Shown here piece by piece: positions 11,335 to 34,712 of a DNA stretch of 64,000 nt (positions within the stretch are counted from its first letter, which is position 1; the number at the start of each line of letters is the position of its first letter). The DNA lies in contig CAKTZI010000020.1 of the NCBI GenBank assembly GCA_934635385.1, positions 1,820-65,819 of the forward strand, read 5' to 3'. The notes under the pieces were generated by a model that saw only the letters and a list, made by a program, of their open reading frames with translations, was not told where the DNA came from and searched no databases. The position numbers and the translations under genes were made by a program. The DNA is from an uncultured Kiritimatiellota bacterium. Its GTDB lineage: Bacteria; Verrucomicrobiota; Kiritimatiellia; RFP12; UBA1067.

Positions 11335-11760
11335 TCAGCTCAACGGACGGCCGTCTGCATCGGTGTCGATTGAGCAGATGTTGACCAAGATCCAGATTGC
11401 GAGAATGGGAAAGCCCACAAATCCGATGACGATGGACGAAGGAATACACGACAAAACAAGCACCACGAGCTGGGCGACACCCTGTCCTGCACGTCCGATG
11501 TAGAAGTTGTGAATGCCAAGCCAGCCAAGGCAAAGCCCCAACAGCACATAGGCCAGACGAGACTTGTTGCTCTTGTTGAGTTCGCGCTCGTGCCGCTCGC
11601 GTTCAATGCGCTCGATTCGCGAGAAGAACTGGTCTTGACGGTCTTCGTTCGCCTGCGCCTGCGATGTCCCATTCTTATTGGCAATTGGGTTTCCGCACTT
11701 CGGGCAAGATGCCGCCTTGTCAGACACGTCCGCACCACATTCACTGCATTTGATGAGCAT
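11335..11760 (-). CDS. N-terminal zinc-ribbon + TM2-domain membrane protein
   Basis: MLIKCSECGADVSDKAASCPKCG (CxxC...CxxC), then a TM2-like hairpin AYVLLGLCLGWLGIHNFYIGRAGQGVAQLVV. Confidence 0.65.
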   Translation of the reverse strand: MLIKCSECGADVSDKAASCPKCGNPIANKNGTSQAQANEDRQDQFFSRIERIERERHERELNKSNKSRLAYVLLGLCLGWLGIHNFYIGRAGQGVAQLVVLVLSCIPSSIVIGFVGFPILAIWILVNICSIDTDADGRPLS

Positions 11761-17319: not shown

Positions 17320-17466
17320 GTCAAATGAGACATTTTTAACAACAGGTGAGGATTCGTGTGGTATCTGCGGCGGTTACTAAACACAGAGCGGCCTCTGTGT
17401 TTCATGAAAACAGAGACTTTCGTGCGCGACAAGGCGAACGGAGGAAATGGTATAATTCGCCCCCTT

Positions 17467-18447
17467 ATGAAAATGCTGATGGTAGTGACAGCTCTGGTTC
17501 CTTGGATGGTCGGTGCGGCGGAGGCGGCGACCGATGTCTACGCACGGGAGACGGGCGCCTTTCTCGCGGCGCGGGACGGGCGCGTACAGGCCGCGCAGAT
17601 TGCGGCCATCCGTCGGGCGACAGCGGGCGAGGCGGACGACCTCAAGGCCGTCCGAACGGCGCGGAACACGTGGGCGCCCCTGCCGGACGGCGTGGAGGCC
17701 GAGATGCTGTCGCCGACGATGCGGCTCTATCGTCCGAAGGGCGGACGCGACTTGCCGCTTCTCATCTACCTGCACGGCGGCGGCTGGGTGATCGGCGGCC
17801 TCGCGAGCTGTTCGGCGTTCTGCGGCGCGGTCGCGGCGAAGGGTTCCGCCGTCCTCGCGCTCGACTACCCGCTTGCGCCGGAACATCCGTTCCCGGCCGC
17901 GCTCAACGACGTCTGCGCGGCCTTCCGCGCGGTCGTGTTCGATCCGGCGCGCTTTGGCGCGGACCCGACGCGGGTGTCGATTGGCGGCGACTCCTCGGGC
18001 GGAAACCTCGCGCTCGCGGCGGCGCTCGTCCTGCAGAAGGAGAACCTGAAGCCGCGCTCCCTCGTCCTCTATTACCCCGTCACCGAAGCGCGGGCGGACG
18101 GTTCGGCGTCATGGCGGACATTCGCGACGGGCTGCGGCATGGACGCGGCGTTCATGGACGCGTGCCTCGTGGCCTACCTGAACGGACACAATCCGGCGGA
18201 TCCGCTCGTCTCGCCCGCCTTCGCCTCGGACGGGCAGCTGCGCCGCCTTCCGCCCGTCCACATTCTCGGCGCGGATCGCGACGTGCTGCACGACCAGGGA
18301 CTGCGCTTCGCGCGGCGGCTGGGCGCGCTTGGATGTCCCGTGCGCGCGGAGGTGCTGCCCGGCAGCACGCACCTCTTCGTCACCGTCAAGGGCCAGCCCG
18401 CCGCCTTCGCGCGCGCCGTCGCATTCGCCGCCGAGGCGATGAGGTGA
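17467..18447 (+). CDS. Secreted alpha/beta-hydrolase fold esterase/lipase (HGGG family)
   Basis: Signal peptide MKMLMVVTALVPWMVGAAEA, oxyanion motif IYLHGGGW, nucleophile elbow GDSSGG. TGGTATAAT -10 lies only ~10 nt upstream of the ATG, which is leaderless-like. Confidence 0.8.
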   Translation: MKMLMVVTALVPWMVGAAEAATDVYARETGAFLAARDGRVQAAQIAAIRRATAGEADDLKAVRTARNTWAPLPDGVEAEMLSPTMRLYRPKGGRDLPLLIYLHGGGWVIGGLASCSAFCGAVAAKGSAVLALDYPLAPEHPFPAALNDVCAAFRAVVFDPARFGADPTRVSIGGDSSGGNLALAAALVLQKENLKPRSLVLYYPVTEARADGSASWRTFATGCGMDAAFMDACLVAYLNGHNPADPLVSPAFASDGQLRRLPPVHILGADRDVLHDQGLRFARRLGALGCPVRAEVLPGSTHLFVTVKGQPAAFARAVAFAAEAMR

Positions 18448-18464
18448 TGGCATGACGACATGCT

Positions 18465-19310
18465 TTGTGCGCCAGTTTTTTCATCATGGCAGATGAGGAT
18501 GCTGAAATGAAGGAACAGAGAATCGAATCGATAGATGGCGGGAAGGCTTTTGACTGGGGGCGCGTCTCGTCCGAATACGCGAAGTTCCGGGACATCTATC
18601 CGGCGGCGTTCTACCGCGCGATCCTCGACCGGGGGTTCTGTCGAGACGGGCAGCGGATTCTCGATCTCGGAACCGGGACGGGCGTGCTGCCGCGCAACCT
18701 GTACGCATTCGGCGGCAACTGGACGGGTGTGGACATTTCGGCGGAGCAGATTCGCGAGGCACGGCGGCTGTCGGCGGAAATGAAGATTGACTATCGCGTG
18801 GCGTCGGTGGAAGAGGTGGACTTTCCGCCGAAATCGTTTGACGTCATCACCGCGTGCCAATGCTTCTGGTATTTTCGCCACGAGCAGATCGCGCCTCGGC
18901 TGGCACGTCTCCTGAAGCCGAACGGTCGGTTGCTTGTCCTTTGCATGGAATGGCTACCGTATGAGGACGCGTTGGCGGGACGCAGTGAGGCATTGGTTCT
19001 CAAGTACAGCCCGAACTGGAGCGGCGCGGGAGCAACTGTTCTGCCCATTGCGATTCCCGATTGCTACAAGAGCGAGTTTGACATCGTGGGCCACGGCGAG
19101 TTTCGTCTGCCCGTCCACTTTACGCGCGAAACGTGGCACGGGCGCATGAAAGCCTGTCGTGGCGTCGGCGCGTCGCTCGCGGCGGACGAATTGGCGGCGT
19201 GGGAGGTGGAGCATCGGCAGCTGCTGTCCGAGACAGCACCATCGGAATTCGACGTTCTTCACTACGCCGCATGGGTTGAGTTGCGCGTACGGGATTTCCA
19301 TTGTCGTTGA
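18465..19310 (+). CDS. Class I SAM-dependent methyltransferase
   Basis: Motif I ILDLGTGTGVL, VDISAEQI. Confidence 0.8.
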   Translation: MCASFFIMADEDAEMKEQRIESIDGGKAFDWGRVSSEYAKFRDIYPAAFYRAILDRGFCRDGQRILDLGTGTGVLPRNLYAFGGNWTGVDISAEQIREARRLSAEMKIDYRVASVEEVDFPPKSFDVITACQCFWYFRHEQIAPRLARLLKPNGRLLVLCMEWLPYEDALAGRSEALVLKYSPNWSGAGATVLPIAIPDCYKSEFDIVGHGEFRLPVHFTRETWHGRMKACRGVGASLAADELAAWEVEHRQLLSETAPSEFDVLHYAAWVELRVRDFHCR

Positions 19311-19401
19311 ACGCGAAAGCGCGTTGTATCGTCTTGCCCCCATTGACTGGCGGTGATTGAAATGATACACTATTCGCAAATCGCGAATGAGAGGAGCGGC
19401 A

Positions 19402-19908
19402 ATGCTGAAAGGACAGGATCTTGTTGTGCTTGCGGCGCTGATGGGGAACGAGAACGATACCTTGCATGAGCCGTATGCGGAACTTGGCAGACGCACGTGC
19501 CTGAGTGCATCAGAGACACATGCCTCGGTCAAGCGTCTGCTGGCGGCTGCTTTGCTGGGCGGCGACCGTCGGGTGCGCAAGCGAAATGCCCTTGAGTTCT
19601 TGGTTCATGGGCTTCGCTATGCGTTTCCGTTGCGTCCGCTGGGAGAAACGGCGAAGGGGCTTGCGACAGCCTACGCGGCACCTGTGGCAAGCGGGGCATT
19701 TGCCTCGACAGGACTGAAGCCCGTGTGGCGTTCGCCAGGCGGCGAGGTGTTCGGACAGGCATTTGAGCCTCTTTATGCGACAGCGCCTCAGGCGGCGGCA
19801 AAAGACAGGGGGCTGTATGATCGACTCGCCGTATTGGACATGCTGCGGGGTGGCCGCTTGCGTGAACGCCAGTTTGCGGAAGTGAAACTTGGGGAGATGC
19901 TGTCATGA
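19402..19908 (+). CDS. AbiEi-like wHTH antitoxin/regulator (putative)
   Basis: N-terminal wHTH-like GQDLVVLAALMG...SASETHASVKRLL. 4-nt overlap with the downstream nucleotidyltransferase. Confidence 0.4.
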   Translation: MLKGQDLVVLAALMGNENDTLHEPYAELGRRTCLSASETHASVKRLLAAALLGGDRRVRKRNALEFLVHGLRYAFPLRPLGETAKGLATAYAAPVASGAFASTGLKPVWRSPGGEVFGQAFEPLYATAPQAAAKDRGLYDRLAVLDMLRGGRLRERQFAEVKLGEMLS

Positions 19909-20588
19909 ATGACATTGCCGCTTCGATTGCCGTCCTGAACAAAAGGCTTGAAGGCATGCCGTTTGACTATGCATTCCTGGGCGGCTCGGTCTTGTCGCTT
20001 CTTGTCGATGATGCGACGGCTGACGCTGTTCGCGTCACGAAGGATGTCGATGTCATTGCGGACGTGCGAACGAGAAAGGATTTCCATCAGGAAGAGCGCG
20101 AACTGGAGGCGCGAGGCTTTCGGCATGACATGAGCGAAGACGCACCAATTTGTCGTTGGCTTGCGGAAGGCATCGTCGTGGATGTCTTGCCCGTACGAGA
20201 AGAAGTTCTTGGCTGGAAGTCTCGTTGGTTCGAAGAGGCGTTGCGATCCGCAGGGACAATGCAAATAGAAGACCAGCAGGTTAAGGTGATTTCAGCACCC
20301 TATTTTATCGCCCTGAAACTTGAGGCGTTTGAGGATCGTGGGAAAGGCGATTTCATTTCCAGTACGGATTTCGAGGACGTGATTTGCCTTTTCAACGGAC
20401 GGCGTTCGCTTGTGGACGAGATACTTGCGGAGCCAACGGTTGGGCGAGAAATCGCTGAAAAGTTTAAACAGTACGTGCAAGAGCCGGAACTGGAAGATGC
20501 CGTCACGGGATTTGTTCAGACCGAAACGAACCCCGAAGGTCGATTTGAATGCATCATGGATGCGGTTCGGAGGCTCGCCCGCAATTAG
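19905..20588 (+). CDS. Nucleotidyltransferase-fold protein, AbiEii/DUF1814-like toxin (putative)
   Basis: FLGGSVLSLL ... TKDVDVIAD (GS...DxD NTase motif). Confidence 0.5.
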   Translation: MNDIAASIAVLNKRLEGMPFDYAFLGGSVLSLLVDDATADAVRVTKDVDVIADVRTRKDFHQEERELEARGFRHDMSEDAPICRWLAEGIVVDVLPVREEVLGWKSRWFEEALRSAGTMQIEDQQVKVISAPYFIALKLEAFEDRGKGDFISSTDFEDVICLFNGRRSLVDEILAEPTVGREIAEKFKQYVQEPELEDAVTGFVQTETNPEGRFECIMDAVRRLARN

Positions 20589-20829
20589 GCTTGTCAGGGG
20601 CCCAGTTTGTCAAATAGGGAAGACACTCTGTAGGTAGCTTGGCGGCCAACACGCTTGCGCGCGCATTCGCCCACGAGCCGGAAAATATGGTATACTACAA
20701 GTGCTTTTGAAGGAGTAGGCTAGGCAAACTGCCGAAACTGGAGAAGGCAAGACCATAGTTCGAGAACTGATTCGGGCGTCAAGCGACTACGTGTGCGCCG
20801 ACTTCCGCGTCCACCCTCGGATACCTTAA

Positions 20830-20990
20830 ATCAATTTGCAACTGCAAAGCGATCGCCTACCGAAATGTGAGAAGTTTCAAAACGGACGATACTGTGCAGG
20901 AAGCGCAATTGCGCTTCCTCTCATTGTGTTTCCGTTTGGGCATTTCTCACAGCCTCGGTAGAAGCACAAAGGGAGGGTTTCTTTTTTGTG
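20830..20990 (+). promoter_or_regulatory. Conserved structured 5' leader (copy A), a candidate cis-regulatory RNA with a terminator/antiterminator, upstream of the zinc-ribbon operon at 21089
   Basis: Homologous to 31172-31332. Shared TCAATTTGCAACTGCAAAGCGATCG box, a covarying hairpin GGAAGCGCAatTGCGCTTCC versus GGGAACGCAtaTGCGTTTCCC, and a terminal GAAGC...GTTTC + T6 hairpin. Confidence 0.5.
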
Positions 20991-21088
20991 TGATTGCCGA
21001 GCGGTGAAAGCAACGCGCCGCATCTTTCGGTCTGCATGGATGCGCCCGTAAAGCAACGCAGACAAGAGAGAAAGGTGAAAGGTAGGCC

Positions 21089-22594
21089 ATGTTTTGCACA
21101 CAGTGCGGTCAGGAAATCAACGACAAGGCGGTCATCTGCGTCAAATGCGGATGCGCCGTCACGCCACAGGCTGCGCAGCCGATTGCGCCAGAAGTCAAGT
21201 CTGCGGACGAACTCCCTGAGAAATGGACATGGGCGTTGGCCACCGTCCCAATTATCGTCTCGTGGATACTGGCAGGGCTGTTGCCGACGGTGTTCGAAAA
21301 TAGCGACCCATCCCGGCTCGCGCACATCACGACCGCCGCGACCATCCTCCTGAATCTCATTTTCCTGTCGCTTGACGTGAAAGTCCTGAAGAAAGCGGAA
21401 CGTGACATCGAGAAGGCCTTATGGCTTGGGTTCATCTTGATCCCGGTCTACCTTTTCGTACGCGCGGCGAAGTATTCAAAGAAATACGCTCCGGCCATTG
21501 TCTGGTGCGTCCTTTTCGTGCTTGACTTGGTTGCCACAACAGATGAATTGGAAGAAAAGCAAGATTCCGCTGAGCAGAACGCAACCTATAGTCTTGAGAG
21601 CAGGGGCGTTCCTGTTGCGCAGGATACGGCGAAAACAGGCGAGATTGAAGACGTGGCTGAAACGGTCAACGAAATCACGGAGAATATCTCGCAAGAGGTT
21701 GTCCCTCCGTCGGACGTTCAAGAAGTTGTCAGTCTGCGGGATTTCGCGGTTCGTGAACCCTATCGAAGCCGTCGCATTGGTGATTTGCGAAAAGGGGCCG
21801 CCTACAAGTATGAGGCCCATCCCGGATACATGGAATCATACAAGGTGTTGCAGGTGGTGTCTGACGGATGCATTCTCGCGATCATGGATGTCGGCGATGA
21901 TCCTGACTTCTCCGAATACACACAAGCCGTTATTTTGGTCAAGACGAAGCGTGAATATGTTGATGACCAGTACCTTGAATCTGGCGTTTACGCCTATCGC
22001 GGAACTTACACATACGAAACTACGTTAGGCGGGTCGAAGACCGTTCCCCAGTTTCAAGAGGTTCGGGTAGATTCTTCACGGGAACGGAAGCCTGCGTCCA
22101 CTTCGAAAATCAATCTGAAAACCATCGTCGCCCGTGAAGACGGAAATGTGGTCGGTATGTTTGGCGTACGGCTTGGTGTTAAGGCGAAGGCCCTGTCGGA
22201 GAAAGACGTTGGGGCGATTGGCAAGCCAATTGTCGTTCCTGAATCTCAGGGTGGCGGCCTTTTGTACAGGTACGACTATCGGGGGAATCGTGGCATTTGG
22301 GACATGTTTACATTCCAAACGGAAGGCGAAGACAGCCCGGTGTTTTGCGTGGAAGCGGTTAAGTCTTATGATAACGAGGCGATGGCGTTGTCCGGCGCGC
22401 AGAGTCTTCTTGTGTTGCTGAAGAACCGTTATGGCGTTTCCATGACGAAGAATCAAATGGCAACGAAAGTCCATGCCTGGTTTCAGATCCTTAAGCAACC
22501 GCACAACACCGTCCTCGCGACTGTAAAGGTGGCCGGAAAAGAAGGAACCTACCTTTTGTCCTATTCAATGATGGCGCTTCCCCCAGACACGTGA
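21089..22594 (+). CDS. N-terminal zinc-ribbon multi-TM membrane protein with a C-terminal globular domain (501 aa)
   Basis: MFCTQCGQEINDKAVICVKCG, then 4 TM segments. The C-terminal segment YLESGVYAYRGTYTYETT is shared with the lipoprotein at 27293. Confidence 0.6.
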   Translation: MFCTQCGQEINDKAVICVKCGCAVTPQAAQPIAPEVKSADELPEKWTWALATVPIIVSWILAGLLPTVFENSDPSRLAHITTAATILLNLIFLSLDVKVLKKAERDIEKALWLGFILIPVYLFVRAAKYSKKYAPAIVWCVLFVLDLVATTDELEEKQDSAEQNATYSLESRGVPVAQDTAKTGEIEDVAETVNEITENISQEVVPPSDVQEVVSLRDFAVREPYRSRRIGDLRKGAAYKYEAHPGYMESYKVLQVVSDGCILAIMDVGDDPDFSEYTQAVILVKTKREYVDDQYLESGVYAYRGTYTYETTLGGSKTVPQFQEVRVDSSRERKPASTSKINLKTIVAREDGNVVGMFGVRLGVKAKALSEKDVGAIGKPIVVPESQGGGLLYRYDYRGNRGIWDMFTFQTEGEDSPVFCVEAVKSYDNEAMALSGAQSLLVLLKNRYGVSMTKNQMATKVHAWFQILKQPHNTVLATVKVAGKEGTYLLSYSMMALPPDT

Positions 22595-22645
22595 AGCCAC
22601 GGATGATGCGAATCAGCACGAGAAACAAGAGCATCAGAAAACCAC

Positions 22646-22990
22646 TTGATTATGTTCTGCCGACACTGCGGACACGAAATCAATAGCAAAGCGGTCCTCT
22701 GCCTGAATTGCGGATGCGCCGTCGATTCTGCCGAGCCGATGCCGGAGGCGTCAGCCCAAGCCGCCGTTCGCCCGAACGAATGGCTGGCGGCCGTCCTCCT
22801 GTGCATCTTTCTCGGCTCTCTCGGAATCCACCGCTTCTACACGAAGAACACGGCGGTCGGTGCCGCGCAGCTCGTCCTTGGGCTGCTCACCTGTGGCGTC
22901 GTCAGCTGGATTTGGTCGTTCATCGACATGATCATGCTTTTGACCGGCAGCTACACAACGGGTGACGGTCGTTTCCTGACAAAAAACTAA
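22646..22990 (+). CDS. Zinc-ribbon + TM2-domain protein
   Basis: MFCRHCGHEINSKAVLCLNCG, then WLAAVLLCIFLGSLGIHRFYTKNTAVGAAQLVLGLLTCG (TM2 signature). Confidence 0.7.
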   Translation: MIMFCRHCGHEINSKAVLCLNCGCAVDSAEPMPEASAQAAVRPNEWLAAVLLCIFLGSLGIHRFYTKNTAVGAAQLVLGLLTCGVVSWIWSFIDMIMLLTGSYTTGDGRFLTKN

Positions 22991-23015
22991 ACACAACGAA
23001 AGAGAGGTAGGTAGT

Positions 23016-23375
23016 ATGTTCTGCAAGGAATGCGGAGCCCAAATCAATGACAAGGCGGCGATATGCCCTAAATGCGGTGTGCCGGTCGCGTCGGCCAAGC
23101 CGGCCTTGGCGGAAAAGGAGAAGGTCTCGAACCACATGATCGAGGCGATCATCGTGACGCTTTTCTGCTGTCTGCCGTTCGGCATCGTTTCAATCGTCTA
23201 TGCGTCGAAGGTCAACGCGCGGCTTGCGATAGGGGATGTCGAGGGCGCCAAGGCGGCTTCACGTTTGGCCAATCGGTGGCTGCTGACGGGCGCGGGCCTT
23301 GCCGGTGCCCTTGGCCTTCTGTGGGCGGCCTTGTGCGCGCTGGGCGTGGTGAGCGAGGAAATGCTGGCGCTGTAA
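23016..23375 (+). CDS. Zinc-ribbon + CD225/dispanin-like membrane protein
   Basis: MFCKECGAQINDKAAICPKCG, then TLFCCLPFGIVSIVYASKVN (CD225-like). Confidence 0.65.
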   Translation: MFCKECGAQINDKAAICPKCGVPVASAKPALAEKEKVSNHMIEAIIVTLFCCLPFGIVSIVYASKVNARLAIGDVEGAKAASRLANRWLLTGAGLAGALGLLWAALCALGVVSEEMLAL

Positions 23376-23399
23376 AAGGAGCGCACCAAGAGGGATCTG

Positions 23400-23813
23400 A
23401 TGTCGTTTGTCCCTGCGGATCGAACGTTGTGCGACACGTCGGGCGATTCTGCTCGGCGTGCCGCGCGGCGTCCAAGATGGTGGGCGTTCATGATTGCTGC
23501 GTTCGCGCTTGCCGCCCTCGCGTTCCTCTACTTTTGCAATCCCTCCGACGTGCCGTATTTCCCACGCTGTCCGTTTCTGGTGCTGACAGGTTACCAGTGT
23601 CCGGGATGCGGGACGCTGCGCGGTATCCACAGTCTGCTGCATTTCAGATTTCGGGACGCTTGGGGCTACAATCCGTTTCTGGTCGTCTCGATTCCCCTGA
23701 TCGCGGCACTTGTGCTGTCCCCTCGCTTTCGCAGAAGCCCGCATGTGTCCAAAACGGGTCTCACGGCAATTCTCGCCTATTGGCTGTTGCGTAATATGGG
23801 GCTTGGGAGATAG
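23400..23813 (+). CDS. DUF2752-like membrane protein (CPxCG motif)
   Basis: FPRCPFLVLTGYQCPGCGTLRG plus TM helices. Confidence 0.5.
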   Translation: MSFVPADRTLCDTSGDSARRAARRPRWWAFMIAAFALAALAFLYFCNPSDVPYFPRCPFLVLTGYQCPGCGTLRGIHSLLHFRFRDAWGYNPFLVVSIPLIAALVLSPRFRRSPHVSKTGLTAILAYWLLRNMGLGR

Positions 23814-23825
23814 TGTCATTAGCTG

Positions 23826-25400
23826 GGGTCTGACACCCGTGGTAGGGTACAAGTGGTAGGGTTCGGCGGATTGAGGGGCCTGTCCCCAATCTGAACCGCA
23901 GAAAACGTCGAGAAATCGGACATTTTGAGCAGATAGCCTAAAATGAGGTATAATGTAGAACAAGTTCCTTTTTCACGGTGGAGAAGGACTTGTTCCTTGA
24001 CAACTGGCTGGATGGCATACGACTTGCAAACATGCCGACGCGCGCCTGCGCCGCGAAGCGCCGCGCGCGTCGGCATGTTCACAAGTCTTTCCGCCGGAAG
24101 CGGAAGATCCTCCCATTTGGTACAATGTGAGCTGGAGCGCACTGGCCACGGTGGCCGTGCAAAACACAGACAGACAGGAGGAACCAAATGAACGGAGAGT
24201 ATCATGCCACAATCGGCATGGACGTGAGCGACCGCACGACGAAAGTCTGCGTCATGTCCAAGGAGGGCGGCGCGAGGCGCATCCTCGAGAAGACGACGAT
24301 ACCCACGACGGGGGACGGGCTCCGGGCGTACCTTTCCGGCAAGGGCGCGGACTGGCCGGTGGTGTTCGAGACCGGCGCGCACTGCCGCTGGATGAGGCGC
24401 GAGGTCGAGTCCCTCGGCATGAGGGCGATCGTCGCCAGCCCGTCGAGGCTGCGGATGGTGACGGAGTCCGACACGAAGGACGACCGCAACGACGCGAGGG
24501 ATCTTGCGAGGCTCGCCCTCGCCGACGCGGAGCTGCTGCACCCGGTGAGGCTGCGCGGCGAGCGGTGCCAGCAGGCGCTGCGGCTGCTGAAGGCGCGGGA
24601 CATGCTCGTGAAGGTCCGCACGATGCACGTGAACGAGCTCAGGGGGTTCGCGAAGTCCATGGGCTTCAGGCTGCCGGACTGCCCCGCCAACAGGGCGCAC
24701 GCCATGGACAGGTCCGGGCGGCCCGCCGACTTCGAGGCCGTCGCCTGGCCGCTGATGGGCGTGCTGGAGACGGTGGACGTCAAGACAAGGGCCTGCGAGG
24801 CCCAGGTCCGGGCGCTCGTTCGGCGGCTGATGGTCGAGGCGGCGCAGATTGCCCTGCGAAGCGCCGCGAAGGACACGGACGCGAAGCTCAGGGGCGAGCG
24901 GATGTGCGCCAGGGGCGGCAGGATCGCGAAGAGGAAGGCCCTCGTCGCGGTGGCGCGCTGCCTCGTGGTGACGGCGGCGGCGCTCCTGAAGAGGCCCGAC
25001 GCGAAGTACGTGCCGCTGTCCGAGGCGGCCAGGCGCGAGTTCGAGGCGATGCGCGCGTCTGAGGCGTAGCCCGTCCGGAGGGAGGCTGCGGACACGGGGC
25101 GAAGACGACGGTTTCGGCGAAAAGCAAAGATGTCGCGTCGCGGGAGAGTGCGGACTTGGATTCTGCATCATCGAATGCGCCAATGAGGCAGCACCCCCGC
25201 CGACGCATTATAAGGTGCGCGGGCGACGAAAGTCCCAGAGCGCGGATAGGAGAAGGACATCACCTGCTTTCGCGGCCTGCGGAATCGCTCCGCGATGGCC
25301 TATTGACTTTTGTTCTCATAGGAGGTCTGATGCGGAAAATTCTGTGAGCAAAAAGTGTCAGACCCCAATGGTGGGGTTCGCGTGGTAGGGTTTGCGGGCG
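23826..25400 (+). mobile_element. IS110-family insertion-sequence-like element (boundaries approximate) flanked by ~45-bp direct repeats
   Basis: Flanks gtctgacacccgtggtagggtacaagtggtagggttcggcgg (23828-) and gtcagaccccaatggtggggttcgcgtggtagggtttgcggg (25357-). About 360-nt structured non-coding left arm, then a DEDD-type transposase. Confidence 0.6.
24188..25069 (+). CDS. IS110-family (DEDD) transposase/recombinase, short (293 aa)
   Basis: N-terminal YHATIGMDVSDRTTKVCVM (the IGIDVSK motif), LVKVRTMHVNELRGFAKSMGFRL, and C-terminal ALVAVARCLVVTAAALLK. Confidence 0.7.
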   Translation: MNGEYHATIGMDVSDRTTKVCVMSKEGGARRILEKTTIPTTGDGLRAYLSGKGADWPVVFETGAHCRWMRREVESLGMRAIVASPSRLRMVTESDTKDDRNDARDLARLALADAELLHPVRLRGERCQQALRLLKARDMLVKVRTMHVNELRGFAKSMGFRLPDCPANRAHAMDRSGRPADFEAVAWPLMGVLETVDVKTRACEAQVRALVRRLMVEAAQIALRSAAKDTDAKLRGERMCARGGRIAKRKALVAVARCLVVTAAALLKRPDAKYVPLSEAARREFEAMRASEA

Positions 25401-25561: not shown

Positions 25562-26515
25562 ATGAACGAGAAAAACCAGCTTGTGCTATTCAAGTCGAAA
25601 GACGGGCAAGTCAGCTTGCCCGTGACGCTGGAGCGCGAGACCGTCTGGCTTTCGCAGCGGCAGATGGCGGATCTGTTCGGGAAAGACCGAACGGTCATCG
25701 GACGTCATATCCGAAATGCGATAGATGAAGGTGAGATTGACGAGAAAGTGGTATGTGCAAATTTTGCACATACCACTCGTCACGGCGCGATGGAGGGACG
25801 TACTCAGAGCCAGAATGTCATTTACTACAATCTCGATGTCGTGATTTCGGTTGGCTATCGTGTGAAGTCGCAGCGCGGCGTCGAATTCCGGCGTTGGGCG
25901 ACGTCCGTGCTGCGCGACTATCTGCTCAAGGGCGCGGCTGTCAACGAAATGCGTCTGCGTCAGCTCGGACAGGCCGTCGAGGTGATGAAGCGCGTCTCGA
26001 ACCGACTGGACGCGGAACAGGTCTTGGATGTCGTCAAGGCGTACTCGTCGGCACTCGACCTTCTGGACGCCTACGACCATCAGACGGTTGGCAAGCCAAA
26101 AGCGCGGGCGCGCTCGGTCGAGCTGACTTACGCGGACTGTCGTGCGTTCATCGACAGCATGAAGTTCGCCGAGACGTCGCCGCTTTTCGGCAACGAGAAG
26201 GACGGCTCCTTCAAGTCAGCGTTGGGCGCGGTCTACCAGTCCTTCGGCGGAAAGGATCTCTATCCGTCGGCACAGGAGAAGGCGGCGAACCTGCTTTATC
26301 TCGTCACGAAGAACCACGGCTTCTCCGACGGGAACAAGCGCATCGCGGCTGGGCTCTTTCTCTATTTCCTCCAGCGCAACAGACTGCTGCTGCGCAAGGA
26401 CGGCTCCAAGCGCATCGCCGATTCGACGCTTGTCGCGCTGACGGTCATGATCGCCGAGTCGCGTCCGGCAGAAAAGGAAATGATGGTCAACCTCGTCATG
26501 ACCTTCTTGGCCTGA
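25562..26515 (+). CDS. RhuM-family N-terminal domain fused to a Fic/Doc domain
   Basis: RhuM-like VIYYNLDVVISVGYRVKSQRGVEFRRWATSVLRDYL. Doc-type motif HGFSDGNKR. Confidence 0.75.
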   Translation: MNEKNQLVLFKSKDGQVSLPVTLERETVWLSQRQMADLFGKDRTVIGRHIRNAIDEGEIDEKVVCANFAHTTRHGAMEGRTQSQNVIYYNLDVVISVGYRVKSQRGVEFRRWATSVLRDYLLKGAAVNEMRLRQLGQAVEVMKRVSNRLDAEQVLDVVKAYSSALDLLDAYDHQTVGKPKARARSVELTYADCRAFIDSMKFAETSPLFGNEKDGSFKSALGAVYQSFGGKDLYPSAQEKAANLLYLVTKNHGFSDGNKRIAAGLFLYFLQRNRLLLRKDGSKRIADSTLVALTVMIAESRPAEKEMMVNLVMTFLA

Positions 26516-29813: not shown

Positions 29814-30327
29814 GTGCCACGCTTCGCACAGAGGTATATGTAAGACCAGTGAAACTTGTCCGACTTTCGTGTCCGTGCCACGTGCGGCATTTGTACCCGT
29901 CGGCGCGGCGCAGCCGCCTCGCGCGCGACAGCCCGGAAACCAGGGCTTCAGCATGAAAAGATGATTTTTTCTCTGTGCGACAGCAGTCGCATTGGGCACG
30001 TCGTCCCGCCAGCTCGCGCTCGCGCGTCGGAACGGGAAGCTGCTCGCTCGGTCTCGTCGTTCGGGTTTGCGCTTCTCGCCGAAGACAACCGACCGACTTC
30101 AGCCTGCCGTGCCTCGGCGAGACCACGGGCTGCGGGCGAGACCTCTCCGACGCCAGCAAACCCTCGCTCCTCACTCGCGCCACTTCCCGCCCCTCCGCGC
30201 GCGACACCGCACCTTCGATCTTGTCACGCGGAGCCGCAGAGTCTTGGCTACATTGAGAAGCGCAGATCGTGGCCAAAAGTGCGACGAACTGCCAAGCAGT
30301 AAGCGAATTGTTTCTCCGCGCGGAGGC

Positions 30328-30360
30328 TCGGGAACACGGTCGTGTAGTTTTGTGGTATAA
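30328..30360 (+). promoter_or_regulatory. Second copy of the promoter-operator CGGGAACACGGTCGTGTAGTTTTGTGGTATAAT
   Basis: Near-identical to 15435-15470. Confidence 0.55.
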
Positions 30361-30427
30361 TTCGCGTGTTCCTTGGGCGGCAGCGATTCTGCCCTTGGAT
30401 GTCGTAATCAATTATGTCGTGCTTCGC

Positions 30428-30862
30428 ATGAGAGTCTATCTCGACAACTGCTGTTACAATCGTCCGTTTGATCCACAAACGGATTTGCGCATTTGTCTCG
30501 AAACGATGGCGAAGATGCGTGTGCAAGCCCTGATGAAAAGCGGTGCTGTTGAATATGCTTGGAGCGATGCCCTTGATTACGAACTCGGTCAAAGCCCGAA
30601 CTATCAAGAGCCTGACATGATTGCGCCGTGGAGAGATGGTGCCGTTGTTGATGTCGCGACAGACGATGAATTGATTGACCGCGCCGAAAAAATCCAGTCA
30701 TACGGCATCAAGGCTATGGATGCCATGCACATTGCAAGTGCAGAATCTGCTGGATGTGACTGGTTCCTGACGACCGACAAGGGAATTCTTAAGAAATTGA
30801 GAATGCTTGGCGAAATGCGTATCGCCAATCCGATTGATTTTGTCACGGAGGATGCAAGATGA
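30428..30862 (+). CDS. PIN-domain nuclease (VapC-like, MRVYLDNCCYNRPFD family)
   Basis: N-terminal MRVYLDNCCYNRPFDPQTD and C-terminal acidic residues DAMHIASAE. True start is internal to the ORF-track model. Confidence 0.7.
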   Translation: MRVYLDNCCYNRPFDPQTDLRICLETMAKMRVQALMKSGAVEYAWSDALDYELGQSPNYQEPDMIAPWRDGAVVDVATDDELIDRAEKIQSYGIKAMDAMHIASAESAGCDWFLTTDKGILKKLRMLGEMRIANPIDFVTEDAR

Positions 30863-31077
30863 CGATGATTCCCGATAATGAACTTCGGACATTGTGCTTT
30901 AATGTCCTTGTTGATCGCGTTGGCTATCTTGACACGGAGCGGTTTGTGGCTATGATAAGCCGTTCAACGGAAGACTACACGTCATGGCATCAACGCCATT
31001 TCGGCAACGGGGAATCGGCAAGGGCCCTTGGCGAGAAAATCAAGGCATTCGCCGCAACAAAGCGGCAATGTGTCTGA
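30859..31077 (+). CDS. Hypothetical 72-aa protein translationally coupled (ATGA) to the PIN gene; possible cognate antitoxin or regulator
   Basis: 4-nt overlap with the PIN gene stop. Confidence 0.35.
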   Translation: MTMIPDNELRTLCFNVLVDRVGYLDTERFVAMISRSTEDYTSWHQRHFGNGESARALGEKIKAFAATKRQCV

Positions 31078-31171
31078 CGCAATCTGATTTAAATTTTCAA
31101 AACTGCACCCCGAAAGGAACCCAAAATAACAGTTTAAGCGAGAGGCGGAAGTAACGCACCGCCAAACCAAG

Positions 31172-31332
31172 TCAATTTGCAACTGCAAAGCGATCGTCTC
31201 TGGAAACGTAGGAACTTTCGAGACTGACGACACTTAGCAGGGAACGCATATGCGTTTCCCTCCTTTTGTGTTTCAGTCAGGGCAATTCCTACGGCCTCCA
31301 GAGAAACATGAAAAGAGGGTTTCTTTTTGTGT
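31172..31332 (+). promoter_or_regulatory. Conserved structured 5' leader (copy B) upstream of the SPFH/zinc-ribbon operon
   Basis: See copy A. Terminator-like GAAAC...GTTTC + T5. Confidence 0.5.
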
Positions 31333-31423
31333 CCGATTGCCACGCGGCGAACCGGCACGGAAAGGAGGATGGCCCGTTCTCGATCCGTGAGACAAGTCAC
31401 AGGGCAGAAACAAGGAAAATTCG

Positions 31424-32578
31424 ATGGCACTGATCGAGACGTTGAAATGGGACGGCGCGCCAAACGTGTTCGCGTTCCGCTACCCCAATTGCGAGCTGAC
31501 GACCAAATCGCAGGTTGTCGTCTACGAATCGCAGGAGGCCGTGTTCGTCAAGGACGGCCAGTTCTTCGAGCCGCTGGGGCCCGGTCGCCATATCCTTGAC
31601 GCGAAGAACTTCCCCTTCCTCACGCAGCTGGTCACGGGCCTCGTGACGGGCGGCGAGTCGCCGTTCAGCGCCGAGGTGTGGTTCGTCAACAAGGCCATTC
31701 CGCTGGACATCAAGTGGGGCACGTCCGAGCCGATCCAGGTCGAGGACCCGAAGTACCACGTCATGATGCCCGTGCGGGCCTACGGGCAGTACGGGCTGCA
31801 GATCGTGGACACGCAGAGGTTTCTCGCGAAGCTTGTCGGGCGCGTCCCCGTCTTCGTGACGAAGACCCTGAGCGCCTACTTCAGGGGAATCGTCATCACG
31901 TCGGTCAAGGACCGCATCGCCACCTACTTGGTGAACGAGGCCGTCTCGGTGCTGCAGATGGGAAGCCGACTGACGGAGGTGTCGTCCTTCCTTCAGGACG
32001 AGCTGACGAAAGAGCTGCAGGACTACGGCGTCCGCGTGGCGTCCTTCAAGGTCAACTCCATCACGGCGGACGAGAGCGACCCCGCCGTGGCGCAGCTGAA
32101 GCGGGCGTTGGCCAAGAAAGCCGAGATGGAGATCGTCGGCTACACCTATCAGCAGGAGAAGTCGTTTGACGTGATGAGCCGGGCGGCGGGCAACGAAGGA
32201 GGCGGCGCCAGCGCGTCCGTCATGCAGACGGGCATGGGACTTGGACTGGGGATGGGGTTGGGCGCACCGCTTGGCGGCGCGGCGGCTGGCCTGGCGACGC
32301 ATCTCCAGCTGGACGGCGGCGAAAAGTCCGTCTGCGGCACATGCGGCGCAACGCTGCCGGCGGCGGCGCGCTTCTGCCCGAACTGCGGTACGGCGCGCGA
32401 GTCCCGCAAGGCAGAAGGCTGTCGGTGCGCGAGATGCGGGATCGAGTGGGCGAAGCCGTCGCGCTTCTGCCCCAACTGCGGACTGGAGATGACGCCCGAA
32501 AAGCGGACGTGCCCCGCGTGCCAGACGGAACTGCCTCCTTCGGCGAAGTTCTGTCCCAACTGCGGAAAGGAGGCGTGA
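31424..32578 (+). CDS. SPFH/band-7 domain protein with a Gly-rich linker and four C-terminal zinc ribbons
   Basis: N-terminal SPFH-like region (MALIETLKWDG..., ~250 aa). Linker MGLGLGMGLGAPLGGAAAGLA. Four CxxC-x10-17-CxxC ribbons (CGTCG...CPNCG, CARCG...CPNCG, CPACQ...CPNCG). Confidence 0.75.
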   Translation: MALIETLKWDGAPNVFAFRYPNCELTTKSQVVVYESQEAVFVKDGQFFEPLGPGRHILDAKNFPFLTQLVTGLVTGGESPFSAEVWFVNKAIPLDIKWGTSEPIQVEDPKYHVMMPVRAYGQYGLQIVDTQRFLAKLVGRVPVFVTKTLSAYFRGIVITSVKDRIATYLVNEAVSVLQMGSRLTEVSSFLQDELTKELQDYGVRVASFKVNSITADESDPAVAQLKRALAKKAEMEIVGYTYQQEKSFDVMSRAAGNEGGGASASVMQTGMGLGLGMGLGAPLGGAAAGLATHLQLDGGEKSVCGTCGATLPAAARFCPNCGTARESRKAEGCRCARCGIEWAKPSRFCPNCGLEMTPEKRTCPACQTELPPSAKFCPNCGKEA

Positions 32579-32580
32579 GC

Positions 32581-33033
32581 ATGTTCTACAAACGGAGCAT
32601 CTGGGCGATCGTCGCCCTCGCGATGGCGCTTGCCGCCGCCACGTTGTTTGTGGTCAGGGAGGCCCCCTACTCACGGAACTTCTGGTTGGAGCTGACACTG
32701 CTGATGGTCGCGCTCGCGGCCGCCGGATGGCAGGGGGCGTGTTCCGTCGACCATCCGGGCTCGTCGCTGCCGTTTCCGCTGGCGAGTCTGCGTCTCACGC
32801 TGCGGTATGCCGTCTTCGTCCTGCTCATGGGCGTCCCCGTCCTCCTCGACATCAACATCCGGTTCAAGTACTATGCCCTGGCGCACGGCTTCGGACTGGG
32901 GCTTTGGCTGGCCGCGCTCATCGCCCTGCGGATGGGGACGCATGCGGTCGACGAGCAGGATGCATCAGACCGTCAGCGGACAAAGGCGCAGCGCGAACAT
33001 TCGATAGATTCATCACCAGAATATTGTAATTAA
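32581..33033 (+). CDS. Four-TM membrane protein, hypothetical
   Basis: Starts 3 nt after the SPFH gene stop. Hydrophobic helices. Confidence 0.45.
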   Translation: MFYKRSIWAIVALAMALAAATLFVVREAPYSRNFWLELTLLMVALAAAGWQGACSVDHPGSSLPFPLASLRLTLRYAVFVLLMGVPVLLDINIRFKYYALAHGFGLGLWLAALIALRMGTHAVDEQDASDRQRTKAQREHSIDSSPEYCN

Positions 33034-33077
33034 CTCCGATGATTATGGCTCTCGCGCGGCCTACGGCTCGGAGTTAA
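33029..33077. repeat. Hairpin repeat ttaactccgaTGATTATGGCTCTCGCGCGGCCTACGGCtcggagttaa
   Basis: Same family as 455-615 and 27757-27792. Confidence 0.55.
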
Positions 33078-33135
33078 ATTACCATTAGAAGGAATCACTA
33101 AATTACCGAAACAATAACTCATAAAGGCGAATCAC

Positions 33136-34062
33136 ATGAAGTGCGAATACTGCGAGAACGAAATCCCCGGATCAACAGCCAACTTCTGCCCTTTCTGCGG
33201 GGCGAAGGTTGAATGTGAGACGAAGGTTGAAATGCCGCCAGCAGCCCCCGTGGAGACATCTTGGCTGAAAGGCATGTCTTGTGGTGGCGTCAGCGTGCGG
33301 TGTGGCGACGCCAAGGAAAAGACGGAGGCCCTTGTCGGTTCTGACGATTCCGATACGTCACAGGAGGAAGAGATCCGCGCGTATATCCGCGACAAACGCC
33401 AATGCGGTTGGTTTGAAAGCGTCGATGTCGTCGCATACGGCTTTGTCCCGAATTCGGGTGAGACGGTCTATGCCCTTATTCCGAACGTGATGCTGAACGA
33501 GACGAGGAGCATCCGACGGTCACACACCGCCAAGTCCGGTTCCAGCAGTTACGACTACGAAGGGCAGTCCGAAAGCAAGACTTATTACGAGTTTCAGGAG
33601 GTGACGCGCGGACGGCTGTTCCTGACGAGCAAGCGAATCGTCTTCACGGGCGGACAGCAAGTGCGCAACATCCTATTTACCGATATCGTGTCCTTTGAGT
33701 CGGACTGGCAGGCAGACGAAGGCGCCCTGCAGATTTCGTCGTCCAAAAGAACGAAAACCATGCGTTTTACAGGGGCGAGCGTCTTTCTTTTCACAACGCT
33801 GTATCAGGCACTCCGCAACGAGAGATTCCGTGCGCTTCTGGAGTCGGGGCCAGAGGATGAACTGGTCGAAAAGTTCAAGGAGATGGGACTGTTCAAGCCG
33901 AAGCCAAAGCCACAACCTCTGCCTAAACCCAAACCGGTTCAAAAGACGCCGCAGAATGACGGGGACGGTTGCGGTATTGGCTGTTTTGTATTGTTCATTT
34001 TCGGAGCTATTTTTGCACTGATTTTAATTTACGAGATCTATCAGATGGGAACATCTAACTGA
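33136..34062 (+). CDS. Zinc-ribbon + bacterial PH-like domain + C-terminal TM anchor protein
   Basis: MKCEYCENEIPGSTANFCPFCG, a PH/GRAM-like segment LFLTSKRIVFTGGQQVRNILFTDIVSF, a KPKPKPQPLPKPKP linker and a C-terminal TM helix. Confidence 0.5.
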   Translation: MKCEYCENEIPGSTANFCPFCGAKVECETKVEMPPAAPVETSWLKGMSCGGVSVRCGDAKEKTEALVGSDDSDTSQEEEIRAYIRDKRQCGWFESVDVVAYGFVPNSGETVYALIPNVMLNETRSIRRSHTAKSGSSSYDYEGQSESKTYYEFQEVTRGRLFLTSKRIVFTGGQQVRNILFTDIVSFESDWQADEGALQISSSKRTKTMRFTGASVFLFTTLYQALRNERFRALLESGPEDELVEKFKEMGLFKPKPKPQPLPKPKPVQKTPQNDGDGCGIGCFVLFIFGAIFALILIYEIYQMGTSN

Positions 34063-34067
34063 ATGGA

Positions 34068-34712
34068 ATGACTATGGACTTGCCCTCTTACACACGCGGA
34101 AAAACGACGTATTACGACACGGCGGGGCTCTCGATCAGTGAGAGTATGGCAGTTGCCTTTCAGGCCGGCTTAAAAGGGAAAGGCTTCGAAGTCTTTGATT
34201 CAACCCAGATGGACTGCCCGAAATGGGTAGAGCAGATGGTGCTGGCGCGGCGACATCGAGAGGCGAAAGCGAACGAGTTTGCCCGTGCAAGGCAAACGTC
34301 GCAGGAGGATCTCTTCAAGCCAAAGATGCTCAGGATTGATTCTGAGCCGTCGCCGCAACGAGAGGCCACAGCCCCTGCGACGCCGCCGTGGACATGCGAA
34401 TATTGCGGTAAATCGAATGACGCGCAAGAGTCCGCTTGCCGTGGATGCGGCGCGCCGAATCCGCACGGCGAAACGTCAGCCGTTGCACCGAAGAAGGTTG
34501 ACGTCTTCATGGATGCGGTGGTCTCGTCCGTCATCGCCGCCATCGGCTATGACGAGTACGCGAAGCGACTCGTCGTGCGCTTCAAGTCCGGCGCGGCCTA
34601 CGAGTACCTGAACATCCCGAAATCGCTTTACGCCGAACTGATGGCGTCCGAGGCGAAAGGCAAGTTCTATTCAGCGAACATTCGCGGCAAGTTCGACGGA
34701 CGAAAGCTCTAA
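34068..34712 (+). CDS. RanBP2-type zinc-ribbon + KTSC-domain protein
   Basis: WTCEYCGKSNDAQESACRGCGAP, and a C-terminal KTSC-like IGYDEYAKRLVVRFKSGAAYEYLNIPKSLYAELMASEAKGKFYSANIRGKF. Confidence 0.6.
   Translation: MTMDLPSYTRGKTTYYDTAGLSISESMAVAFQAGLKGKGFEVFDSTQMDCPKWVEQMVLARRHREAKANEFARARQTSQEDLFKPKMLRIDSEPSPQREATAPATPPWTCEYCGKSNDAQESACRGCGAPNPHGETSAVAPKKVDVFMDAVVSSVIAAIGYDEYAKRLVVRFKSGAAYEYLNIPKSLYAELMASEAKGKFYSANIRGKFDGRKL

Follow-up and report, generated by a model that had tools for sequence, protein, structure and literature searches.

A structured RNA family with two competing folds as a candidate transcription-attenuation leader of membrane-protein operons in uncultured gut Kiritimatiellae

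A 64-kb stretch of DNA from an uncultured Kiritimatiellota bacterium (GCA_934635385.1, contig CAKTZI010000020.1, positions 1,820 to 65,819 of the forward strand; hereafter, the window) carries two copies of an element, copy A (20827-20987) and copy B (31168-31329), each located upstream of an operon encoding zinc-ribbon and membrane proteins. The results presented here show that this element belongs to a genuine family of structured RNAs, for which Rfam 15 has no match and our literature search returned no paper. We consider it fairly probable that the element is a cis-acting leader of an undescribed class, of the transcription-attenuation or riboswitch type, controlling the downstream operon by conditional intrinsic termination in response to a candidate effector. 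An earlier interpretation of this DNA from its letters alone (the sequence-only reading) had proposed a riboswitch or attenuator architecture built around an unfamiliar motif. This agrees with what we observe, namely a leader RNA on the + strand with two mutually exclusive folds, one of them ending in a U-tract. All features described below lie on the + strand unless stated otherwise.

The two copies can be aligned from ~20827 to 21010 and from ~31168 to 31351, respectively (blastn, 75% identity over 183 nt), and they are the only ones in the window, where neither nhmmer profiles nor a covariance model run with filters off detected a third. The covariance model assigned 173.7 bits to copy B and, by strand, 174 bits to the + strand versus 32-36 bits to the - strand; these scores, together with the many G-U pairs on the + strand, identify it as the RNA strand. 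The 25-nt box TCAATTTGCAACTGCAAAGCGATCG, previously noticed for its inverted half-sites, occurs exactly twice in the 64 kb (20831-20855 and 31172-31196), with 0 occurrences expected from shuffles. Neither copy could be assigned to a known family. The entire window yielded no match to Rfam 15 at gathering thresholds, and relaxing the search to E ≤ 10 around both copies returned only noise (best E 1.1-7, 13-16 bits versus thresholds of 35-140), with no signature of T-box, ANTAR targets, ribonucleic antiterminator (RAT), known riboswitches, 6S or small RNAs (sRNAs). A literature search on Kiritimatiell* with riboswitch or noncoding RNA likewise returned no paper.

The family comprises at least 44 copies, several per genome, in gut Kiritimatiellaeota, Verrucomicrobia and Lentisphaerae metagenome-assembled genomes (MAGs) and in metagenomes. 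Screening a species-representative genome collection with an exact 19-nt box pattern returned 26 true copies and 6 chance matches, the true copies originating in MAGs titled Kiritimatiellaeota (Hadza gut), Verrucomicrobia/Verrucomicrobiota and Lentisphaeraceae, and a metagenome scan added 15 further loci, all 15 of them true. The window itself derives from a metagenome assembly of gut type. All 11 matches of a 17-nt box pattern to viral contigs were due to chance, with similarity ending at the pattern, and blastn against plasmid records gave no match. Several element contigs (L022, L026, L028, L030, L031, L032, L035, L038, L039 and L041) sit in bins ('H07xxx-L1_cleanbin') labeled as Faecalibacterium, Gemmiger, Limosilactobacillus gorillae, Lachnospira hominis, Alistipes onderdonkii, Azospirillum or Anaerovoracaceae. 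Because these contigs resemble Kiritimatiellaeota and Verrucomicrobia contigs in sequence, the element is probably present in Firmicutes- and Bacteroidetes-named bins through binning contamination.

Folded individually, the two window copies reach -70.1 and -69.1 kcal/mol (z about -7 against dinucleotide shuffles), and in their joint fold 10 predicted pairs are altered on both sides yet still paired. These include the apical hairpin GGAAGCGCA/TGCGCTTCC versus GGGAACGCA/TGCGTTTCC, so that the concerted change of hairpin arms that had been reported between the copies is borne out. We performed structure prediction with RNAalifold on a family alignment of 26, and then 38, distinct full copies. 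The resulting consensus consists of the box hairpin (P3), followed by a single ~107-nt hairpin with conserved internal loops (P4-P7; 20856-20962 in copy A and 31197-31304 in copy B). Across this long hairpin and helices P1-P3, of which P1 and P2 belong to the 5' domain discussed below, 97.5% of the alignment cells are paired, versus 84.4% in shuffles and 36-50% with slid partners. Both-sided changes occur in 25 pairs (211 cells), which none of 500 shuffles reached, and 28 pairs covary in the 38-sequence set. All 38 copies have the long-hairpin fold as their minimum free energy (MFE) structure. When every pair of alignment columns was scanned without bias, P1, the hairpin helices and the terminator stem (T-stem) described next were recovered, and nothing else meaningful. 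The search for further copies and covariation advocated by the sequence-only reading, made in genomes and metagenomes, has yielded more than 40 copies and 25-28 covarying pairs.

The upper part of the long hairpin has as its 3' strand CCUCUCUUUGUGUUUC (20918-20933), which is complementary to GAAACACAAAGAGAGG (20962-20977), a segment directly ahead of the U-tract. In copy A, the alternative fold (20918-20988) comprises the T-stem, formed by CCUCUCAUUGUGUUUC at 20918-20933 and GAAGCACAAAGGGAGG at 20962-20977, and the U-tract at 20978-20988. In copy B, sequence and family alignment place it at 31259-31329, with 15 of 16 pairs between 31259-31274 and 31303-31318 and a U-tract at 31319-31329. This 16-bp stem is 94.7-95.4% paired across the family, five of its pairs present both-sided changes (e.g. 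U-A in 19 copies and C-G in 13), and at least six U are found within 10 nt after it in all 38 copies. Two conserved helices hence share one strand and exclude each other: forcing the T-stem results in the loss of the long hairpin, at a cost of 4.9-23.1 kcal/mol (mean 11.4). At one position of the shared strand, covariation is with the hairpin partner (C-G in 17 copies, U-A in 15), and 14 copies are left with an A-C mismatch in the T-stem. Three nt upstream of it, a position that has no partner in the hairpin covaries with its T-stem partner only. Each fold therefore has covarying positions of its own, which argues that both are under selection. Given that the folds exclude each other, that the hairpin is the MFE structure and that the T-stem precedes the U-tract, the long hairpin is most likely an antiterminator and the T-stem with its U-tract a terminator. 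The complementarity of TTGTGTTTC to the later GAAGCACA/GAAACATG, which had been taken for an antiterminator, does exist within these 16 nt; its role has to be revised, since the stem stands directly before the U-tract and is the probable terminator; the long hairpin, for its part, had not been described in full. Conversely, the small terminator hairpin GAAGC...GTTTC originally put forward is weak and not conserved, with the closing C-G present in 9 of 38 members and zero compensatory changes.

Two further structures map to the region shared by the box and the long hairpin. A local hairpin, GAAAU-N7-GUUUC in copy A (20862-20878), lies within the 5' strand of the long hairpin and could possibly act as an anti-antiterminator. 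In the family motif, GAAAY-N7-RUUUC, 37 of 38 copies, spanning five haplotype classes, have either U..G or C..A at positions 5 and 13, with copy B (C..C) as the exception; this swap is the pattern of an isosteric wobble pair closing the hairpin. The local hairpin is included in the MFE structure of the nascent transcript in 24 of 38 copies. The second structure, a possible alternative helix termed Alt (20842-20899 in copy A), pairs CUGC (20842-45) and AUCGCC (20852-57) with GACGAU (20885-90) and GCAG (20896-99), and in its family form joins the 3' flank of the box, CUGC...AUCGUC, to GACGAU...GCAG. Alt shares nucleotides with P3 (3' strand) and with P6/P7 (5' strand) and encloses the local hairpin, and folds forced to hold the terminator show both Alt and the local hairpin. 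This arrangement suggests a relay, modeled here from the predicted folds, that would run through the box hairpin, Alt, the long hairpin and the T-stem.

The box itself (20831-20855 in copy A and, as an exact duplicate, 31172-31196 in copy B) is predicted to form P3, UUUGC (20835-39)-AACU-GCAAA (20844-48), followed by GCGAUCG. The P3 stem shows zero variation among 40 distinct sequences, and covariation is therefore uninformative on the box. The constraint on the stem sequence is compatible with a specific binding partner, with several alternative pairings or with the two combined.

Both position and orientation place the element as a leader. The longest open reading frame (ORF) in the 350 nt downstream is co-oriented with the element in 32 of 40 copies, and five of the remaining eight present small co-oriented ORFs beginning 36-92 nt downstream. 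Start codons lie mostly 36-110 nt past the U-tract, mostly with AGGA or AAGG upstream, and upstream genes are co-oriented in merely about two thirds of the copies. The first ORF begins 101 nt (copy A) or 95 nt (copy B) past the end of the U-tract, in line with the ~80-100 nt first estimated. The 30 downstream products analyzed include SHOCT (5/30), DUF805 (3), zinc-ribbon (3), PD40/PEGA (2) and MBOAT (2) proteins, with DNA methylase, glycosyltransferase, beta-lactamase-fold, He_PIG, ankyrin, FRG-CBS, radical SAM and SPFH as singletons. Many start with a signal peptide or lipobox, and most are envelope or membrane proteins. No candidate RNA-binding regulator was found encoded beside the copies.

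Conservation extends beyond the U-tract into a tail with consensus G(C)GAUUGCCGnGCGG (20989-21008 and 31330-31347 in the window), which reads GUGUGAUUGCCGAGCGGUGA in copy A and is kept in most copies; the unbiased column-pair scan revealed no covarying partner for it anywhere in the element. In copy B, the tail leads into an optional third module, GCACGGAAAGGAGGAUGGCCCGUUC...CACAGGGCA, the two together covering 31330-31412. This module (31345-31412) is also present in six other loci (L022, L028, L029, L037, L050 and L054) as GCGACACGGAAAGGAGAAUGGCCCGUUCGAC...ACAGGGC. It holds a Shine-Dalgarno-like run and an AUG, and its upstream ORFs, of 13-76 codons, conserve only their first 4-5 residues (MARS/T). 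A coding interpretation, as a type I toxin or leader peptide, was rejected because there is no conserved frame, indels are not multiples of three and the upstream ORFs shift frame.

On its 5' side, alignment of the 300 nt upstream of the box revealed that copy A reaches ~140 nt further than had been described, and that these extra nucleotides are common to almost all copies. The ~160-nt unit originally delimited stands as the common functional core, and the full unit of copy A spans ~300 nt, with its own putative promoter and a 5' domain, and would yield an RNA of ~290 nt. The putative promoter is an extended -10 element, TG-G-TATACT (20688-20696; family consensus TGnTATAAT), in which T, G, T, A, T, A and T are invariant and the distance to the RNA is fixed in 26 copies. 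We infer from this conservation that the block acts as a promoter and that transcription of copy A starts at ~20700. A 5' hairpin of variable length and sequence (P0; 20700-20752), seen in single-sequence folds and poorly aligned across the family, precedes the 5' domain (20758-20822). In the latter, P1 pairs 20758-20764 with 20816-20822 (AGUUCGGG with CCCGGAU) and encloses hairpin P2 (20777-20803). P1 is 98-99% paired, with 2-3 covarying pairs, and P2 presents 5-7 covarying pairs. A transfer RNA or transfer-messenger RNA origin for the CCACCC...GGAU segment was discarded, as ARAGORN finds neither in the window and the segment corresponds to the 3' strand of P1.

The 5' domain is not present in copy B, where a short 'type B' 5' region with a GGCGG...CCGCC hairpin (31100-31168) takes the place of P0-P2. 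This region is conserved with loci L062 and L063, upstream of orthologous SPFH operons, and no conserved promoter was seen in the type B copies, copy B included. The promoter-like site nearest copy B (30929-30956; TTGACA-16-TATGAT, sigma-70-type, 11/12 matches to consensus) is located inside a 72-aa ORF, 215 nt ahead of the box, and could drive the type B leader.

The operons preceded by the two copies, defined by Pfam matches in combination with gene calls (A) or with a gene order maintained in homologues (B), encode distinct sets of proteins. Operon A (21089-23813) comprises genes for a 501-aa zinc-ribbon membrane protein (21089-22594), a zinc-ribbon-TM2 protein (22652-22990), a zinc-ribbon-CD225 protein (23016-23375) and a DUF2752 protein (23490-23813). 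Operon B (31424-34712) comprises genes for an SPFH (Band_7_1)-double-zinc-ribbon protein (31424-32578), a 150-aa membrane protein (32581-33033), a 308-aa zinc-ribbon protein (33136-34062) and a KTSC-domain protein (34068-34712). The sequence-only reading had regarded these clusters as paralogous, which does not hold, since their proteins have just a short zinc-ribbon motif in common. None of the eight cluster proteins matched PADLOC/NCBIfam families, leading us to discard a defense-system cargo. A further zinc-ribbon-TM2 gene (141 aa; 11335-11760, - strand) lies 9 kb upstream of copy A, with no leader nearby.

To place the association between element and operon on a basis independent of the box pattern, we retrieved homologues of the SPFH-double-zinc-ribbon protein of the window together with their contigs. 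In homologues with 90% and 61% identity, the core is present and preceded by the type B 5' region also seen in copy B, indicating that copy B is, as judged from these sequences, a conserved variant and not a broken copy, and a homologue with 57% identity carries a full type A element with TATAAT upstream. In SPFH operons further removed from that of the window (57% identity or less, other lineages), the element was found neither by nhmmer nor by the covariance model. There, TM2 and DUF2752 genes, both of them cluster A families, come after the SPFH gene. Because gene families of clusters A and B share operons in other genomes, the two clusters of the window appear to belong to one functional system, for which a shared leader would be sensible. 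A Lentisphaeria MAG (L074/L075:382-2540) presents a homologous SPFH-zinc-ribbon / 225-aa / TM2 operon without the leader, and instead has genes for an extracytoplasmic function (ECF)-type sigma factor and a Ser/Thr protein kinase directly upstream. At two loci, a small ORF of 95-103 aa that is absent in the window lies between leader and SPFH gene (L066:2553-2840 and L064:1696-2007); the two products are 48% identical to each other and belong to no Pfam family. Sigma-W controls an SPFH protein encoded in a membrane-stress operon of Bacillus subtilis (PMC8581546). As in the window, that operon encodes an SPFH-domain protein together with small membrane proteins, and it contains a Rho-independent terminator inside the operon (PMC8581546). 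The two systems differ in that regulation relies on a sigma factor there and would rely on a leader RNA here, and the window protein was compared at the level of Pfam Band_7_1, not to YdjI.

Together, these results define the family, the position and orientation of its members relative to genes, both folds and their mutual exclusivity, and they are consistent with the following mechanism. In the full form represented by copy A, the strong extended -10 promoter would start an RNA of ~290 nt consisting, from 5' to 3', of the variable hairpin, the 5' domain, the near-invariant box hairpin and the switch. In the antiterminator fold, the purine-rich GAAACACAAAGAGAGG would be left free and RNA polymerase would continue into the operon. 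In the terminator fold, the pyrimidine-rich CCUCUCUUUGUGUUUC would form the 16-bp stem with the purine-rich segment, and transcription would end at the U-tract. The default state is probably ON, given that the hairpin fold is thermodynamically favored and made first. An effector, for which a small molecule, a protein or another RNA are all candidates, would keep the 5' strand of the hairpin off its partner until the terminator forms, possibly by way of the box, of the GAAAY-N7-RUUUC local hairpin and of the weakly supported helix that joins the 3' flank of the box to GACGAU...GCAG. Stabilization of Alt and the local hairpin would then result in termination, and stabilization of the box hairpin in read-through. 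A more specific version of this proposal, which we regard as tentative and rather doubtful, is that the element constitutes a new riboswitch class, with the box region, local hairpin and flanking helix as its aptamer, sensing a global small molecule such as a second messenger or an envelope-stress metabolite. Kinetically controlled termination would thereby switch off a membrane and envelope regulon (SPFH-zinc-ribbon, TM2, CD225, DUF2752, SHOCT, DUF805, MBOAT and lipoproteins) in uncultured gut Kiritimatiellae, replacing the ECF sigma factor used for the same operon elsewhere.

Several observations weigh against an attenuation or riboswitch leader. Promoter use, the RNA ends, actual termination, the way in which the switch turns and any effector acting on it are inferred. 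A generic -35/-10 promoter scan did not call the block at 20688-20696, because it requires a -35 match that is absent, and a generic terminator scan did not report the terminator, because it requires loops of 3-8 nt and the terminator loop has an unusually large 28 nt. The antiterminator is favored by ~11 kcal/mol on average, so that termination needs a mechanism which at present is guessed. Support for Alt is weak: the helix is 94.5% paired and four of its pairs show one compensatory change each, values equaled by 3 of 500 shuffles. The box hairpin receives no support from covariation, and the uniformity of the box sequence is in part an artifact of collection, as most family members were retrieved by an exact match to 19-21 nt of the box. 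The heterogeneity of the downstream genes also means that the ligand cannot be deduced from them.

The invariance of the box bears as well on the reading of its palindrome, TTTGCA-N2-TGCAAA, as a DNA operator through which a dimeric transcription factor would control a regulon, with RNA structure being secondary. The perfect 6+6 half-sites, invariant instead of covarying, are what such a reading would predict; their spacing is not. In five copies identified independently of the box (L066, L068, L063, L062 and L019b), the half-sites TTGCA/TGCAA are kept around a middle of 4 nt (TAGC, ATGC, ACGC or GCAC), instead of the 2 nt of most copies, with GCGATCG changed to GTGGTCG or GCAGTCG, and a 4-nt spacer is usually better tolerated by a hairpin loop than by the operator of a dimeric DNA-binding protein. 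The box would moreover lie ~135 nt downstream of the transcription start, and an operator leaves the covarying helices unexplained, which makes this reading very improbable. The same near-invariant motif would be typical of the seed of a trans-acting sRNA of ~290 nt, with gene proximity being incidental, and the conserved promoter, U-tract terminator, several copies per genome and heterogeneous neighbors also fit an sRNA family with its own promoter and Rho-independent terminator. Against it, a co-oriented ORF begins within ~110 nt in almost all copies, at a fixed orientation and distance, the linkage to SPFH operons is held across 57-90% protein identity, the type B copies, including copy B, have no conserved promoter, and conservation runs past the terminator. 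The read-through fold, itself under selection, is also more stable than the terminator fold in 38 of 38 copies, and we deem an sRNA quite unlikely. A local duplication drifting without function, which the sequence-only reading had named as the outcome that would undo its claim, could account for two copies 10 kb apart in one island; the more than 40 copies in many MAGs, their 25-28 covarying pairs and the unrelated flanks and downstream genes leave it virtually no probability.

The element could also be a dispersed, recombining, promoter-bearing repeat ('mobile promoter' or miniature inverted-repeat transposable element-like) without sensing function, whose hairpins would serve RNA stability or processing and whose terminator-like stem would be idle in regulation. 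The element is indeed multi-copy, many contigs end at it, and partial copies with differing break points are found at L036:3611-3721 (L036b), L048:7234-7332 (L048b) and L051:2108-2289, consisting of the 5' half alone, a fragment from mid-5'-domain to the start of the long hairpin, or the 5' half and box. The L036 and L048 fragments directly follow a 91-92% homologue of the Fic/RhuM gene of the window (25562-26515), where no remnant is present. At the site orthologous to that of copy A in Verrucomicrobia bacterium UBA1629 (L029, DCMF01000006.1; compared with 17452-20991 of the window), after the AbiEii gene, the element is 77.5% identical and its flanks 90-92%; the downstream gene differs, and the methyltransferase gene of the window (18465-19310) is absent. 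Both window copies furthermore lie in a stretch of lower GC content (10000-37300; 0.51-0.63 versus 0.66-0.72 in both flanks) that resembles a genomic island. Encoded within it are a tyrosine integrase that bears a SHOCT motif at its C terminus (35973-37292, - strand) and an IS110-family transposase whose ORF has the DEDD domain only (24188-25069), along with the toxin-antitoxin-type genes AbiEii (19905-20588), Fic/RhuM and PIN (30269-30862). The element thus also acts as a recombining repeat, which counts against a purely regulatory role and which we read as recombination among regulatory cassettes that leaves the case for function intact. No terminal inverted repeats join its ends, there being internal hairpins only, and no transposase is associated with it; a 12-nt flanking match (20655-66 with 21040-51) is not common to copies with other downstream sequence. 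Two exclusive helices held by compensatory changes, with a universal U-tract, are hard to square with a passive stabilizer, and the element has been retained vertically ahead of one operon family. On balance, a repeat devoid of sensing is unlikely, and we retain a cis-acting leader as the favored reading. Two other candidates were rejected: a retron or RNA-guided mobile-element RNA, since there is no downstream reverse transcriptase and the IS110 transposase is 3 kb away and absent at other loci, and an invertible promoter, since the inverted repeats do not flank the promoter.

If this interpretation is correct, the element would represent a class of large regulatory RNAs not described before, in which covariation is unusually clear and at least two competing folds are conserved. 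It would delimit a regulon made up of membrane proteins that are poorly understood (SPFH-zinc-ribbon, TM2, CD225, DUF2752, SHOCT and DUF805). It would also offer a handle on what the ubiquitous small zinc-ribbon and TM2-type membrane proteins respond to, and on gene regulation in a phylum whose gut Kiritimatiellae concerned are represented here by MAGs and metagenomes only. With a switch core of ~160 nt and terminated versus read-through RNA as a simple readout, screening for ligands or proteins in vitro would be feasible without culture.

Second-messenger riboswitches, such as the cyclic di-GMP-I (GEMM) class, precede many unrelated genes. In architecture, not homology, the element resembles these and other terminator riboswitches in its constitutive-looking promoter, covarying stems with invariant junctions or loops, exclusive antiterminator and terminator folds, several copies per genome and association with heterogeneous, often surface-related genes. 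It differs from the riboswitches in Rfam in that it matches none in sequence or structure, its most conserved part is a hairpin without stem covariation, its antiterminator, with conserved internal loops, is unusually long (~107 nt), and its 5' domain is exchangeable (types A and B). With trp and pyr leaders, BglG/LicT-RAT and lambda N-boxB it shares a relay of overlapping helices to a terminator, here possibly P3, Alt, the long hairpin and the T-stem, and, as in protein-dependent antitermination leaders, a short invariant hairpin upstream of the switch could bind a protein. Unlike classical attenuators, it presents no conserved leader peptide, as frames shift, no RAT, ANTAR or T-box signature by Rfam and no adjacent RNA-binding regulator. 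Finally, the element is akin to the Correia (Neisseria), ERIC, RUP and BOX repeats in forming multi-copy intergenic long hairpins with a possible promoter and partial copies. It is set apart from them by the absence of terminal inverted repeats, by its strict orientation to the downstream gene, by helices that are kept through compensatory changes and by a second, exclusive fold that ends in a U-tract.

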